Below are positions 1 through 41,947 of a stretch of DNA of 64,000 nucleotides, piece by piece; within the stretch, counting starts at the first letter, position 1; each line of letters opens with the position of its first letter. Below the pieces are notes generated by a model, which saw nothing but the letters and a program-made list of their open reading frames with translations, made no database searches and was not told the DNA's origin. A program made the position numbers and the translations under genes. The stretch comes from an uncultured Acidobacteriota bacterium. Lineage in GTDB: Bacteria > Acidobacteriota > Terriglobia > Terriglobales > Acidobacteriaceae. The stretch covers positions 58,167 through 122,166 of the forward strand of contig CAWDFM010000004.1 in the NCBI GenBank assembly GCA_963801615.1, given 5' to 3'.

Positions 1-387
1 GTTCGCCATGCCGCGCCGGCCCTCGGTAAAGTGGGTGCCGATGATGTTGCAATAGGAGGGAAACGCTACCGATTCGCCGAGCCCCAGAATGACGCGAATG
101 ACCATCAGCGCGGCAAATCCATGCAGGAGTCCGGTTACCGCGGTAGCGCTCGACCATAAAAAGAACCCGGCCGCGAAGACCCACTTCACGTCAAAGCGGT
201 CTGCCAGCCATCCGGCAGGAATTTGCATGCAGCCGTAGGTCCAGAAGAATGCCGATAACAGCGTGCCCAGCTGCAGATCGGAGAGGTGAAGTTCCCCTTT
301 GATGAGTTCAGCGGCGATGGAGAGATTGCTGCGGTCGATGTAGTTGATAAGAACAGAGAGGGCCAGCAGGAATAACACCCGGTTCAT
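1..387 (-). CDS. MFS transporter (ACS/hexuronate-like), N-terminal part only; 3' end lies beyond window start
   Basis: Manual translation of the minus strand from ATG at 387: MNRVLFLLALSVLINYIDRSNLSIAAELIKGELHLSDLQLGTLLSAFFWTYGCMQIPAGWLADRF...GLGESVAFP. This is the typical MFS TM1-TM4 pattern. Open-ended, so absent from the ORF track. Confidence 0.75.
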   Translation of the reverse strand, partial: MNRVLFLLALSVLINYIDRSNLSIAAELIKGELHLSDLQLGTLLSAFFWTYGCMQIPAGWLADRFDVKWVFAAGFFLWSSATAVTGLLHGFAALMVIRVILGLGESVAFPSYCNIIGTHFTEGRRGMAN

Positions 388-646
388 GGCAGAACTGTGG
401 CCGGCGGGCGGCGCCAGTGCCTGATCCGCCTGAATCGCTCCGACCGCGCCATTCGCCGGGAGGGTTACCATGGCAAAACTGAGCAATTGTACGCTCGTAT
501 CTCAAAATGCCAGAGCGATATTGCCTTCGGCCGAAGGGGATTTCGAGTGGAGGAGTTACTACCTGAAGAAGGTCTTTGAAGGGGAACAGGCAACTGGATG
601 ATCCGGCGCCCGTATTGCAAATCTAGACGATTACAACGTTTCGAAA

Positions 647-1669
647 TCAAGAGAAGGTTGGCAGCTTCACCAGGTCGTTCTTGGGTACGGACTCCAGTGG
701 CTTGCCGGCCTTGAGCCAGGCGTGCAGTCCGCCGACGATGATGAAGGCGTTGAATCCTCTTTCCCGCAGTAGATGCGCCACCCGGGCGCTGGTCGCTTCG
801 CGCGTTCAAGTACAGTACAGATAAATCTCTGTGTCCTTGGAAAGGTTCTTGATCTCCTCGTCGAGATTGTTCGGTTCAATGCGGATGGACCCGTGGATCC
901 GCTCGGCGCCGATATCGTAGTACCCATGACTGCGGACGTCGACGATCTGAATCTTGTCCCCAGCTCCGGCAGCGATCCGGGCCGCAAGCTCTGAAACCTG
1001 AATCCTTGGCACAACGTTATAAACCCTGTACTTGATAAAGTGCCTGACCCAGTAAGCGGCGTAAATGATGATGGCGATGGCCACCAGCACTTCCATCACG
1101 CGGCCTGCCGCATAGAAGCTTCGTAAGGTGGCTGCCAGGAAATCGCGGCTCACGTAGCCCACCAGGATGTAAACGGTGGTGTAGAGCAGCGCTCCGGCGG
1201 AATCCAGCAAAATGAATTGTCCGAAGCGCATTTTCATGCTGCCAGAAAGCGGCGCAGCCATGGTGTTGAGGCCGGGTACGAACTTGGCAATGACCAGCGT
1301 GGCTTTTCCGCGCTTGTAAAACGATTCCGCGGCGCGGAGCATACAAGTCTCAGGATTCATGGAAAGCCGGCATAGCACTCTCAGAAGCGCCCATCCCGTA
1401 TAACGCCCCAACCAGAACTGAATGATGTCGCCGGCGAGCAGCGCAACGACGGCGGCCAAAAAGACATTGGTAGCTACCAGTGTGTGCGCGGCGATCGCCG
1501 CTCCCGCGGCAATCATTGCGATCGATGCAGGCAGGGGAAGGCCCATGGCCTGCCCGAACAAAAAGGCAAATGTCAGGACATAACCGTGGCGGGCCACCGT
1601 TGCAACCAGGTCATTCATAACTGCTTCGCTTTGATTCCCCGAGGTCAGAGGAAGGTTCAGTATAAACAA
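647..1669 (-). CDS. DedA-family membrane protein fused to a C-terminal rhodanese domain; reading frame interrupted by in-frame TGA at 806..808 (Sec candidate or pseudogene)
   Basis: ORF 806..1669 has a DedA-like TM core followed by the start of a rhodanese domain (IQIVDVRSHGYYDIGAERIHGSIRIEP...EIYLYCT). The same frame continues after the TGA for 52 codons (TREATSARVAHLLRERGFNAFIIVGGLHAWLKAGKPLESVPKNDLVKLPTFS) to TGA 647..649, which completes the rhodanese fold. The likely true start is ATG 1618 (MNDLVATV). Confidence 0.7.
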
Positions 1670-1702
1670 AAGCCGGACGGATCTGTTGCGGATCCGCCCG
1701 GC
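1662..1702 (-). terminator. Rho-independent terminator-like hairpin plus U-tract (minus strand)
   Basis: Stem gccggacggatc / gatccgcccggc pairs at 11 of 12 positions around a 7-nt loop. On the minus strand it is followed by ttttgtttata. It lies about 45 nt upstream of the probable DedA start. Confidence 0.55.
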
Positions 1703-2117
1703 TCGACCGTCGGAGGAGCGAGTCTCTCAGGAGAACTTCCTCGACAGGATGAGCGAAACAGCGGCTTGCACTCGAAGTCTCTCCGGCCCTGTCGGGCCGG
1801 CGCGTCGAAAAACCTGGGCGCCTTTTCGTCACAGGCTTCGACTGAAGCCGCTGTCCCTATTGACGCATGGTCCGCCGCGGAGAAGACCCCCAGCGACTTG
1901 CCTTTCCCAAGTGCTAAGGGGAGAGGAGTGAGGTTGATCTTCTGCCTCACCGCATGCCAGTGCGTCTCGTTAGCTTTCCGCTCTGGTGGACACCCTCGTC
2001 AACTGCCCGCATTTTCCGACCAGTCCGGTGGAAAATCTGTACCCGCCATCACGGTTCGAGGTGACCCCGGTCAAGTAGGAGAGGGTTTCCAGTTTGTGCC
2101 CCAGGTCACAACGTGAA

Positions 2118-2228
2118 CATGTAGGGACAGCCGCCCTCGGCTGTCCGGCCCGGCGAAGCCGGGCAGAGGCGCCACTCAACAGTCGAGCTTCGCTCGACCG
2201 GACAGCCGAGGGCGGCTGTCCCTACATG
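2118..2228. repeat. REP-like nested palindromic element, full copy 1
   Basis: Sequence: catgtagggacagccgccctcggctgtccgg-cccggcgaagccggg-...-tcgagcttcgctcga-ccggacagccgagggcggctgtccctacatg. Outer arms are inverted repeats and each arm is itself a hairpin. Near-identical copies occur at 16718..16828 and 21064..21174. Confidence 0.8.
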
Positions 2229-6803: not shown

Positions 6804-7456
6804 GAGATAACTTGTGGCTTGTGCGCAAAAATGTAAGCTCGGCGGCTTTGATACTCCACGTTCGGCGCATAAGGATCACGCTCGATCACTTCGTCGATCT
6901 CGAATCCGGCCTCGCGCATATATCCCATCACTGTACGCGCGCTAAAGAATGTGAACTCGAGAGAAACGCCGCATCCCCAAACGTCCTCTTCCAGTTGCGA
7001 GACATCTTCGCCCAGGTGAAAAGCGATCAGCAACTGTCCGCCGGGTTGCAGGACGCGTCGCATCTCTCGTAGGGCTTGAGCAACTTCTGCGCCCGGCAAG
7101 TTTACGATGGCATAGAATGCGGCAATACCCGCCCACGTATTCTCTGCAAACGGCAGCGCCCGCATGTCACCCCAATGAAAATCAATCCCCGAATTTAATT
7201 CTCTCGCCCGCTGGAGCATTCCGTCGGACAGATCAACGCCGCAGACCTGAATCCCTCTCCCTCGCAGGTATCGCGCAACCTGCCCCGGGCCGCATCCCAG
7301 ATCGCACGCCATCCCGCGATCGGCGACGCTGTCGGCAAAGCGATCGAGCAGTTCCCGATCCAGCGGTTTATGCCGCAGTTCATCATAGATACGGCGTGCA
7401 TATTCATCGGCGATCGAGTCGTAGCCGGATTGCACGTCGGGGATGCTCTGGGTCAT
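6800..7456 (-). CDS. class I SAM-dependent methyltransferase
   Basis: Motif I is ACDLGCGPGQVARYL. 218 aa. Its stop overlaps the metG start by 4 nt. Confidence 0.75.
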   Translation of the reverse strand: MTQSIPDVQSGYDSIADEYARRIYDELRHKPLDRELLDRFADSVADRGMACDLGCGPGQVARYLRGRGIQVCGVDLSDGMLQRARELNSGIDFHWGDMRALPFAENTWAGIAAFYAIVNLPGAEVAQALREMRRVLQPGGQLLIAFHLGEDVSQLEEDVWGCGVSLEFTFFSARTVMGYMREAGFEIDEVIERDPYAPNVEYQSRRAYIFAHKPQVIS

Positions 7457-39961: not shown

Positions 39962-41317
39962 ATGAGGAAACTGGGGATATTCCTGCTTACGGTCATTCCG
40001 GTTGTGATTCTGTTGTCGGTGGCGGCTCTGAACCCGCCGAAGGTGGAGGCGGTTCCGAGTTATGCGCGGCAAACCGGATTAGCTTGCAGTGGCTGCCATT
40101 ACACTCCTCCGGAGCTAAATCCGGCGGGACGCAGATTCAAGTTGTTGGGATATGTAGACAAAGCGGATGAGACGAAGGTGGTGAAAGCCGATCCGGGGAA
40201 AAAGCGAGCGCCGCTCGATCTGCTGTCCTCATTACCCCTTTCCGCCTGGCTGGAGACTTCGTTCACTTCCACGAAATCAACCGTGCCCGGAACACAGAAT
40301 GGCAGCATTGAAATTCCCCAAGATGTATCCTTATTCATCTCCGGCGCCTGGACCACTCACGTGGGCAGTTTCATGCAAATGACTTACGACACGCAGGACG
40401 ATCACTTCAGTATGGATAACACAGACGTCCGCTACGCGAATAAGACCACGGTTGGGGGTAAGGAACTCGTATTCGGTCTGAACCTCAACAACAATCCCAC
40501 CATAGAAGATCTTTGGAATAGCACACCGGGATGGGGTTATCCGTTCGTGGCCGATGATTTTGCTCCGACTCCCACGGCTGCGCCCATCGTTGCCAGTTTG
40601 GGCCAGGATGTCGCGGGTTTCGGTGGCTATGCCATGTGGAACAACCACTTGTATGCCGACGCGACGTTCTACCGGTCCGCACACGTCGGAGGAACTCAGC
40701 CGACGGACGGAGTCGATTTTGGCTACAACATCCGCGGCCTGGCTCCGTACTGGCGAGTGGCATGGCAGCAGTTGACGGGAAAGACGCAGTACGAGTTCGG
40801 CACTTACGGCATGCACATGCGTTCCAGCCCGGGGGCCATTACCGGCCTGGAAGATAACTACACCGACTGGGCGATCGACACTCAGATCGATCGGACCTTG
40901 TTCAGAACCGACGTGCTTTCGCTGCGTGGCTCGTACATCCGCGAAAATTCGAATCTCGTCGCCAGCACCGCCTTGGGTGCGGCATCGGCGGGCAGTCATC
41001 ATTTGAATACTCTTTTCGCCAACGCCGAATACCATTTTGGCAATCGCGCGTCGGGCGCTTTGGGTTGGTTCGACACGAGCGGCACGGTTGACCCCCTCCT
41101 CTTTACTCAGGCGGCGGTGAGCGGAAGCGCCAATGGGGATCCGAGGGGCTCGGGTTACATCGCGAACTTCTCGTACTGGCCGTGGCAGAACCTGCAACTC
41201 TCGGCGCAGTACACCGGATACACCCGCTTCAATGGCGGCAGCACGAACTACGATGCCGCCGGCCGCAATGCAAGCGGGAACAACACCGTCTACCTGGTAG
41301 CAAGATTCATTTTCTGA
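39962..41317 (+). CDS. fused monoheme cytochrome c / outer-membrane beta-barrel protein (Cyc2-like architecture)
   Basis: Signal/anchor, then PSYARQTGLACSGCH with a single CxxCH at 40084..40098. This is followed by about 400 aa of an alternating beta-strand-like sequence ending ...VYLVARFIF (C-terminal aromatic residue). Confidence 0.75.
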   Translation: MRKLGIFLLTVIPVVILLSVAALNPPKVEAVPSYARQTGLACSGCHYTPPELNPAGRRFKLLGYVDKADETKVVKADPGKKRAPLDLLSSLPLSAWLETSFTSTKSTVPGTQNGSIEIPQDVSLFISGAWTTHVGSFMQMTYDTQDDHFSMDNTDVRYANKTTVGGKELVFGLNLNNNPTIEDLWNSTPGWGYPFVADDFAPTPTAAPIVASLGQDVAGFGGYAMWNNHLYADATFYRSAHVGGTQPTDGVDFGYNIRGLAPYWRVAWQQLTGKTQYEFGTYGMHMRSSPGAITGLEDNYTDWAIDTQIDRTLFRTDVLSLRGSYIRENSNLVASTALGAASAGSHHLNTLFANAEYHFGNRASGALGWFDTSGTVDPLLFTQAAVSGSANGDPRGSGYIANFSYWPWQNLQLSAQYTGYTRFNGGSTNYDAAGRNASGNNTVYLVARFIF

Positions 41318-41365
41318 TGCAGACACAGATATTCCACTAGGCAAATGCAAAAGGAGAACAAGGCC

Positions 41366-41947
41366 ATGAGATGCAAAGGATTCGTACTGATGCTGGTGGT
41401 GAGTGCGTTGGGCGTGGCAGCTTCGGCGGGCGATATCGAGGGTAAGGTCAGCGGCATGAAAGGGAAGTCGGTAGTTTATGTCGATGCCATTGCAGGCAAG
41501 ACATTTCCCGCTCCCAAGGATCATCCAGTGATGGATCAAAAGGGACTGATGTTTGTCCCGCACATTATGCCGGTTCAGCAGGGGACCACGGTGGAGTTCC
41601 TGAACAGCGACACGGTACAGCATAACGTGTTCTGGACCGCGATCGGCTCAGATAAGAAGGCCGGACACAATCTTGGAACGTGGCCGAAGGGCGAGAAGCG
41701 CCCCTACACGTTCGACAAGCCTGGTGTCGTGCCGGTGCTCTGCAATGTTCATCCGGAGATGGCGGGATACGTCGTTGTCAGCCCTACCCCGTACTTCGCC
41801 GAAACGGATGACAGCGGAAGCTACAAGATCAAAGACGTTCCCGACGGCAGCTACACGGTCACAGTTTTTCATGAAGGTGCGAAGAACCAATCCAAGCCCG
41901 TGACGGTTGCTGGCGGCGGCAAGGCGGATTTCACCCTGACCAAGTAA
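41366..41947 (+). CDS. periplasmic type-1 copper protein (amicyanin-type cupredoxin) with C-terminal CarboxypepD_reg-like domain
   Basis: Signal peptide MRCKGFVLMLVVSALGVAASAG. Ligands are QHNV (His) and C-N-V-H-P-E-M (C-x2-H-x2-M). C-terminal DDSGSYKIKDVPDGSYTVTV. aaggag RBS. Confidence 0.8.
   Translation: MRCKGFVLMLVVSALGVAASAGDIEGKVSGMKGKSVVYVDAIAGKTFPAPKDHPVMDQKGLMFVPHIMPVQQGTTVEFLNSDTVQHNVFWTAIGSDKKAGHNLGTWPKGEKRPYTFDKPGVVPVLCNVHPEMAGYVVVSPTPYFAETDDSGSYKIKDVPDGSYTVTVFHEGAKNQSKPVTVAGGGKADFTLTK

Follow-up and report, generated by a model that had tools for sequence, protein, structure and literature searches.

The window analysed here, a 64,000-nucleotide stretch of DNA from an uncultured Acidobacteriota bacterium, carries on its minus strand a gene for a DedA-rhodanese fusion protein whose reading frame contains an internal TGA codon (806..808). 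We conclude that this is very probably a selenoprotein gene, in which the UGA is read as selenocysteine (Sec, written U in motifs). A preliminary description of the window had hesitated between a selenocysteine codon and a fresh nonsense mutation. The former option is supported by the conservation of the TGA, by orthologues with cysteine in its place, by a hairpin specific to the genes that carry the TGA, and by the existence of known rhodanese selenoproteins. Below, genes with TGA at this column are called Sec forms and genes with a cysteine codon Cys forms.

The open reading frame (ORF) as first called (806..1669, minus strand) ends with ...EIYLYCT at TGA 808..806, and the same frame past the TGA reads TREATSARVAHLLRERGFNAFIIVGGLHAWLKAGKPLESVPKNDLVKLPTFS down to a second TGA at 649..647, both as previously described. 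The start had been placed mechanically at TTG 1669, giving a 287-residue (aa) ORF, and this had to be revised: because homologues begin at MNDL, the true start is most likely ATG 1619..1617. The complete recoded gene would then occupy 647..1619 on the minus strand and comprise 323 sense codons, 270 of them ahead of the TGA, with the Sec-UGA as codon 271 and TGA 649..647 as terminator. Cys orthologues of 323 aa align with it end to end. Comparison of TGA and Cys codons, and the corresponding column of the CxU rhodaneses (see below), place the in-frame TGA at residue 271 in the motif L-Y-C-T-U, immediately after the codons for Cys269 (TGT) and Thr270 (ACT) at 809..814, the ACT lying just 5' of the UGA.

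To place the gene among its relatives, 5.8 billion database proteins were searched and the 120 best matches analysed. Most of these (93/120) span just the first 84% of the query (~270 residues, at 70-99% identity), and all eight that were fetched among them terminate in ...YCT. The other 27 are full length, mostly 313-334 aa, share 61-73% identity with the query and have Cys at the TGA column; nearly all of those fetched read YCTCAR[DE]ATSA, and one homologue has Ser at this column. At the DNA level, we compared 80 best loci, one per GTDB species and ~21 kb each, which are the best-matching share of at least 583 genomes encoding a relative. Their titles name Candidatus Sulfotelmatobacter, Terriglobia, Acidobacteriaceae and uncultured Acidobacteriota metagenome-assembled genomes (MAGs), apart from a few labelled otherwise. 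Independently of these genomes, 85 metagenome contigs from soil and peat were gathered via an unrelated motif upstream of the gene. An alignment of orthologues, which the preliminary description had called for, gave TGA at this column in 75 of the 80 genomes, each with an intact 52-codon frame after it, and a Cys codon in the other five (TGC in four, TGT in one). All 85 metagenome contigs carried the TGA as well. The TGA-bearing genomes and contigs span 67-99% protein identity; as judged from these alignments, the in-frame TGA is conserved far beyond chance. The earlier idea that a Cys may sit at exactly the TGA column was borne out by the TGC and TGT codons of the orthologues (27 proteins, 5 genomes). 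The neighbouring codon behaved in a similar manner: ACT stands directly 5' of the UGA in 73 of 73 Sec-form sequences and in 84 of the 85 contigs, and Cys forms use ACA, ACC or ACT for Thr270.

Substitution patterns pointed to translation beyond the TGA. Among Sec-form genes, the ratio of nonsynonymous to synonymous substitution rates (dN/dS) was 0.096 over the 52 codons downstream of the TGA, against 0.11 upstream. From codon +12 to the end, the corresponding ratio of proportions of differing sites (pN/pS) was 0.15, with a pS of 0.56. Synonymous sites were saturated, pS reaching 0.64 upstream of the TGA. A dN/dS of ~0.1 after the TGA indicates that translation continues through the tail without a change of frame. 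The stop at the end of this gene varies freely (TAG in 46, TAA in 17, TGA in 16), and the internal TGA is never TAA or TAG. Of the window's 32 long ORFs, 11 end in TGA, so it is an ordinary stop there and the genetic code is not reassigned. By this comparison, the UGA at 808..806 is a conserved sense codon and the 52 codons beyond it are translated in the same frame. An in-frame UGA with conserved coding sequence on both flanks, in one frame, is one of the features expected of a selenoprotein gene.

The same data bear on the more trivial explanations. Gene callers and NCBI annotation treat the gene as though the TGA were a fresh nonsense mutation or the mark of a pseudogene, with a truncated 270-aa DedA protein ('VTT domain-containing protein') or no product at all. 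This is most improbable: the same TGA recurs in 75 genomes of different species and in 85 metagenome contigs, it is shared across species whose synonymous sites are saturated, the frame downstream is intact and under selection, and termination would sever the rhodanese domain in the middle of its active-site loop. A sequencing or assembly error at 806..808 has an even smaller probability, as the identical codon turns up in assemblies made independently by many projects, among them MAGs from short and from long reads and JGI metagenomes. Nonsense mutation, pseudogene and sequencing error were thus excluded by the comparative data.

Just downstream of the UGA lies a putative selenocysteine insertion sequence (SECIS) element, an invariant 17-mer on the minus strand (774..790) with a stem formed by 789..785 and 779..775 and the apical loop CGGGU at 784..780. 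The preliminary description had pointed out this hairpin (GCGCC/CGGGU/GGCGC, 789..775), and its first base is indeed the 17th nucleotide (nt) after the UGA, that is, after a 16-nt spacer; the distance from UGA to apical loop is 21 nt. The 17-mer AGCGCCCGGGUGGCGCA (AGCGCCCGGGTGGCGCA; codons +6 to +10 plus one base) is identical in every Sec-form gene. Its invariance includes four-fold and six-fold degenerate positions, whereas nearby codons for Ala, Thr, His, Leu and Gly are free to vary. The codons concerned, AGC GCC CGG GTG GCG (+6 to +10), showed no variation in 74 Sec-form genes, and other Ala, Val and Arg codons of these genes have a codon entropy of 1.0-1.8 bits. Among 188 degenerate columns with a conserved amino acid, only seven were invariant; five of them are the consecutive hairpin codons and one is the ACT before the UGA. 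In a permutation test, five consecutive invariant codons at the hairpin had p < 1e-5. RNAalifold, run on 66 distinct Sec-form sequences, returned the hairpin as the sole consensus structure (-9.1 kcal/mol). In 1.7 Mb of sequence the 15-mer was found 76 times, with a single copy in each Sec-form gene and none outside them. Some metagenome variants have the loop CGUGU, and the only change seen in the stem is C to U, which retains a G-U pair.

The five Cys-form genes behaved differently. They vary at the hairpin codons (e.g. AGT GCC AAG GTG GCC); stem pairs are lost in four of the five and the CGG loop codon in all five. Hence, on comparison of the two forms, the hairpin is under nucleotide-level constraint solely in UGA-bearing genes. 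The preliminary description had held that relatives with TGC or TGT and no conserved hairpin would tell against selenocysteine; what we found instead was TGA together with the hairpin in 75 of 80 genomes. Its suggestion of a resemblance to bacterial SECIS (bSECIS) elements also stood up against the published bSECIS model (PMC13188914), in all four respects. That model has a loop of 3-9 nt on a stem of 4-16 bp, a G at loop position 1-2 usually followed by G or U, a UGA-to-loop distance of 16-37 nt and an energy of -7.5 kcal/mol or lower. The hairpin has a 5-nt loop, CGGGU, on a 5-bp stem, a G at loop position 2 followed by G, a distance of 21 nt and -9.1 kcal/mol.

Rhodanese-type selenoproteins, which the preliminary description mentioned from metagenomes, are on record with Sec at this very column. 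The top NCBIfam match of the read-through protein was NF041203 ('rhodanese_LYCAU, rhodanese-related (seleno)protein', E 5e-22). Its motif, L-Y-C-x-U with the Sec column, is present here as LYCTU, compared with LYCAU. We compared the sequences of three CxU members, two from Desulfobacterota (Desulfosediminicola and Desulfomicrobium) and a third, TKB26178.1. Published CxU members read ...IVLYCAUPNEYTSARLAQKL... and have hydrophobic, signal-peptide-like N-termini. BLASTP to two of the published members gave 32-34% identity, with an ungapped alignment over the motif and U opposite the TGA. The motif proposed earlier, Y-C-x-C-P-x-E-A-[ST]-S, agrees with these stand-alone CxU selenoproteins (LYCAUPNE[AY]TSA) but only in part with the direct Cys orthologues (YCTCAR[DE]ATSA).

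Several points weigh against reading the UGA as a Sec codon served by this hairpin. The read-through protein scores 77.9 bits against NF041203, under the family cut-off of 115. Being short and nearly without variation, the hairpin offers one G-U variant and no true covariation. A single-sequence minimum-free-energy (MFE) fold of 67 nt around the UGA picks another pairing, with a stability not above that of shuffled sequences (z = 0.65). No SECIS-type Rfam match was obtained, either in a scan of the window at gathering thresholds or on 640..900 at E <= 10. Neither the window nor the 80 loci or 120 metagenome loci yielded selA, selB, selD or tRNA-Sec; this sample of a few tens of kb per genome is uninformative either way. 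Finally, the Sec assignment, its chemistry and the topology of the protein are all deduced from sequence. Two of these points lose some of their force. The Rfam null is itself uninformative, no general bacterial SECIS model having been matched, and the alternative 67-nt pairing was dropped for the RNAalifold consensus, its pairs being disrupted by third-position variation at codons +4 and +5.

The shortness of the stem (just 5 bp), the lack of compensatory covariation and the fact that one Cys-form gene (L016) retains the stem would also fit a hairpin kept for codon bias, for mRNA stability or as a protein-binding site, with a read-through that does not depend on a SECIS. We consider this improbable. 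The invariance is limited to Sec forms, in genes whose other Ala, Val and Arg codons are far from fixed; the Cys forms have mostly lost the stem pairs and have all lost the loop codon; and both geometry and loop sequence match the bSECIS model. A SECIS function thus remains by far the preferred reading of the hairpin.

The searches for Sec machinery were as follows. ARAGORN found no tRNA at all in the 64-kb window and no tRNA-Sec in the 80 loci and 120 metagenome loci. NCBIfam and Pfam recognised no SelA, SelB or SelD among 26 of the larger window ORFs and two L001 neighbours. Two SelD sequences and three Occallatibacter selenoproteins gave no tblastn matches in the 80 and 120 loci. A scan for TGA-split ORFs gave no convincing second selenoprotein in the window, and clustering TGA-interrupted ORFs across loci was swamped by off-frame shadows, these genomes being GC-rich. 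According to the literature, the Sec trait does exist in the acidobacterial group: selenoproteins of Acidobacteria were already counted in 2006, and Sec use is known from Occallatibacter riparius, which has three recognised selenoproteins and is listed under Acidobacteriota.

One may ask whether the UGA is recoded, yet not as Sec. The inserted residue is not readable from sequence, and Acidobacteria carry unusual tRNAs. Cys could be inserted via a tRNA(Sec)-like tRNA-Cys and SelB, or the UGA could be passed by near-cognate or suppressor read-through. A work cited in PMC13582414 describes a SelB-dependent UGA-to-Cys system in some bacteria. We give this only a slim chance. The position is a classic Sec/Cys one, common to a recognised selenoprotein family, and a TGC or TGT codon would give Cys at no cost, yet TGA and hairpin are invariant. 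Moreover, Terriglobia with canonical selenoproteins exist; we take Occallatibacter riparius to belong to this group. Selenocysteine is thus the residue we retain for position 271.

We then examined the layout of the read-through protein. Pfam assigned a DedA/VTT membrane domain (PF09335) to residues 29-155 (1155..1535, minus strand; E 5e-12, 46.8 bits for a cut-off of 33.9) and a rhodanese domain (PF00581, E 4e-11) to residues 210-303 (711..992, minus strand), the latter spanning the TGA and also matched by PDB rhodanese entries. An N-terminal PF09335 followed by a C-terminal PF00581 in one polypeptide makes this a DedA-rhodanese fusion. The two parts are joined by the last transmembrane helix of the membrane module (residues ~172-190, followed by the basic stretch RHFIKYR; 1050..1106, minus strand), located from the sequence and from an alignment with YqjA.

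The alignment with Escherichia coli YqjA (K-12 genome) extends over the whole membrane module at ~23-26% identity, and the re-entrant-helix motifs G-x-P-x-P and F-x-P-G-x-x-T are retained. The charged YqjA/YghB residues E39, D51, R130 and R136 have been described as essential for flipping (PMC10127716). Here, E39 corresponds to Q23 (E in most relatives), D51 to S32 (A or S in most relatives), R130 to K112, a conservative change, and R136 to N118; K112 and N118 are invariant in 45 homologues. The membrane module also falls far under the NCBIfam DedA cut-offs. Because these essential charged residues are replaced, we regard the protein, from its sequence features, as a divergent DedA that is not classed as an undecaprenyl-phosphate flippase. 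These replacements hint at a DedA subgroup that handles a different substrate or is not coupled to protons.

As to topology, the C-terminal end of YqjA (G217C) was reachable from the cytoplasm alone in published cysteine-accessibility mapping. The last transmembrane helix of the fusion aligns with the C-terminal helix of YqjA, and an AlphaFold2 model of the Cys orthologue P0120 has a helix at 158-202. Because this helix aligns with that of YqjA and is followed by RHFIKYR, the rhodanese domain is probably cytoplasmic, unlike the stand-alone CxU proteins. Its active-site loop would read C269-T-U271-T-R-E-A-T-S. The preliminary description had put the TGA two residues past the conserved loop Cys; on the catalytic position, two structures gave different answers. 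In the alignment with PDB 6mxv, the catalytic Cys corresponds to C269 and the loop has a two-residue insertion; with PDB 3iwh, aligned without gaps, it corresponds to residue 271, the predicted Sec, and the helix-capping Ser follows six residues later, as in standard rhodaneses. The P0120 model (mean pLDDT, the predicted local confidence score, of 75, lowest in the active-site loop) has a strand at 264-269, a loop at 270-275 and a helix at 276-286, and is compatible with either C269 or residue 271 as the catalytic one.

Taken together, we propose the following sequence of events, modelled on the mechanism established for bacteria. When the ribosome reaches the UGA, SelB-GTP with Sec-tRNA(Sec) would bind the hairpin, and selenocysteine would be inserted as residue 271, giving a 323-aa protein and not the 270-aa database product. 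Residues ~1-190 would form the divergent DedA membrane module, whose last helix would exit to the cytoplasm bearing the rhodanese domain. Sec271 would replace the Cys still used by the 323-aa orthologues, and Cys269 and Sec271 most likely make up a redox or transfer pair, which might act through a selenenylsulfide or as a persulfide/perselenide carrier at the cytoplasmic face of the membrane. Sec at the loop position and the lost flippase charges point to redox or chalcogen-transfer chemistry rather than to undecaprenyl-phosphate flipping.

A more daring proposal, which we put forward as a speculation with the odds clearly against it, is that this would be the first DedA-superfamily selenoprotein, acting as a membrane-tethered chalcogen relay. 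The DedA module, having lost the phosphate-binding and proton-binding residues of the flippases, would move or present a sulfur or selenium species, and Cys269-x-Sec271 would capture or reduce it. Candidate species would be selenite, thiosulfate or a lipid-linked thiol, handled at the cytoplasmic face. If true, one mechanism would account both for the DedA-rhodanese fusions, so far unexplained, and for the long-standing genetic connection of DedA with selenite, and dominant Acidobacteria of peat and soil would depend on selenium for such a relay.

Whatever the chemistry, the recoding has consequences for annotation. The closest database entries mostly stop at the TGA, and those named by NCBI go by 'VTT domain-containing protein'; the database record thus lacks half of the catalytic domain, with the active site in it, and the gene scores below the NCBIfam model that would flag it as a selenoprotein. 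The Sec form is the majority form, present in 75 of the 80 best-matching species genomes (of at least 583) from Terriglobia and Candidatus Sulfotelmatobacter of peat and acidic soils. This implies a widespread selenium requirement and Sec-decoding trait in Terriglobia, which are seldom mentioned in connection with selenium use. Sec271 offers a specific residue for probing the unexplained DedA-rhodanese fusions, and the 17-nt invariant mini-SECIS a compact natural element for studies of SelB recognition in Acidobacteriota. For selenoprotein specialists the surprise is limited; the finding should be useful for annotation, for the ecology of selenium in Acidobacteria of peat and soil and as a lead on DedA-rhodanese proteins.

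The genomic context was also inspected. Upstream of the gene lie polyprenyl synthase, YajQ, TatD, MetG and ArgS genes, and downstream a major facilitator superfamily (MFS) transporter gene. This order is conserved around Cys forms as well as Sec forms and the upstream neighbours are housekeeping genes, so the neighbourhood gives no specific functional clue. The MFS gene lies on the same strand as the selenoprotein gene and starts ~95 nt downstream of it (1..552, minus, cut by the window edge), an arrangement found in 68 of the 80 loci, with Sec and Cys forms alike; its nearest NCBIfam subfamily is the D-galactonate transporter TIGR00893.

Between the polyprenyl synthase and DedA-rhodanese genes, we noticed a structured RNA of ~350 nt (~2016..1662, minus strand). 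The region shows 70-93% nucleotide identity in most loci, has no codon periodicity and ends in a 14-bp hairpin resembling an intrinsic terminator (1704..1670). An alignment of 49 sequences supported 12 helices, with compensatory changes in 34 of 78 pairs; shuffles gave 13.6 +/- 2.2 compensatory pairs, and none of 500 reached the observed 34. Moreover, 95.8% of cells were paired, compared with ~40% with slid partners. There was no Rfam 15 match at E <= 10, and ARAGORN found no transfer-messenger RNA. A covariance model of the central domain gave one match each in 64 of 81 sources, always on the strand of the gene. The RNA is present in at least 120 soil and peat metagenome contigs, almost always at the same syntenic position: in 90 of 95 contigs the next gene is the DedA-rhodanese gene, and in 83 of 86 the polyprenyl synthase gene comes before the RNA. 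It is missing from 17 of 81 sequences, among them L011, which has an intact DedA gene; in four contigs (L095, L135, L164, L168) it is followed by other genes. Because of these two observations, a riboswitch-like leader of the selenoprotein gene is unlikely and was set aside, and we read the element as an independent, as yet unannotated, RNA gene.

After the terminator, ~40 nt upstream of the start codon, stands a conserved motif, TATACTGAAC (1656..1665, minus strand; in its longer form TTTGTTTATACTGAAC, 1656..1668). The longer form is 90-100% conserved and is retained in L011, which lacks the RNA, and where the downstream gene differs. The motif is a candidate -10 element (TATACT) or 5' untranslated region signal of the following gene. 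On the other side, just upstream of the structured RNA, an inverted repeat GTCAC-N8-9-GTGA(C/T) (2049..2066, minus strand) is followed by a conserved ACAGAnTTT; its arms are conserved and its centre is variable between species. It looks like an operator or promoter region of the RNA. Further on, a near-perfect palindromic hairpin of ~89 nt (2129..2217) gave, on either strand, only sub-threshold Rfam matches, all to families of microRNA precursors. Copies of its two arms are found in many related loci at a second intergenic site (~position 6900), which suggests a repeated palindrome resembling a repetitive extragenic palindromic (REP) sequence or a miniature inverted-repeat transposable element (MITE). 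Elsewhere in the window, two ORFs in one frame (39962..41947, plus strand) are split by a TGA at 41315..41317 into 475 and 209 codons. Neither Pfam nor NCBIfam gave a match for the first, and the second has plastocyanin-like and CarboxypepD_reg-like domains; the residues flanking this TGA are unlike a Sec site, and the two are probably adjacent genes.

How does this gene compare with known systems? The hairpin resembles the E. coli fdhF/fdnG-type SECIS in being a stem-loop within the coding sequence, just 3' of the UGA. Its sequence is unrelated to the E. coli elements, and compared with these and with the bSECISearch consensus its helix is minimal and lacks a conserved lower stem or bulge; SelB binding is here a prediction from sequence. 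YqjA and YghB of E. coli and UptA of Bacillus subtilis, members of COG0586, are undecaprenyl-phosphate flippases driven by the proton-motive force. They have the VTT domain in common with the present protein, which differs from them in lacking the essential charged residues and in having an extra C-terminal catalytic domain. DedA-rhodanese fusions have been noted before (PMC10127716, PMC12893004), their link to undecaprenyl phosphate being called 'unclear'. Pseudomonas aeruginosa PA1209 is a more distant, Cys-containing fusion of this kind. Much closer are the Cys-form orthologues of Terriglobia (323 aa, e.g. P0009 and P0120), which have both PF09335 and PF00581, 61-73% identity over the full length and the same neighbourhood, with polyprenyl synthase upstream and the MFS transporter downstream. 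They differ in reading YCTCAR[DE]ATSA[KR], with Cys for Sec, and in lacking the constrained hairpin.

The closest known selenoproteins are those of NF041203, a predicted selenoprotein family with which our protein shares the PF00581 fold and the motif L-Y-C-x-U-x-x-E-[AY]-T-S-A. The members that we read are stand-alone proteins of ~126-150 aa with signal-like N-termini and are probably exported, a description that applies to these members and not to the definition of the family. Here, unlike in those proteins, the domain forms residues ~195-323 of a DedA fusion in Terriglobia and is probably cytoplasmic, and U is followed by T-R, compared with P-N or P-S in the family. No DedA-fused Sec form appeared in the selenoprotein catalogues of two reviews, in the main text and four supplements of the deep-Sep paper, or in a full-text search for DedA, rhodanese and selenocysteine. 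Hence, the Sec site itself was already known, and what is new is its DedA-fused, probably cytoplasmic acidobacterial form, which lies below the family cut-off.

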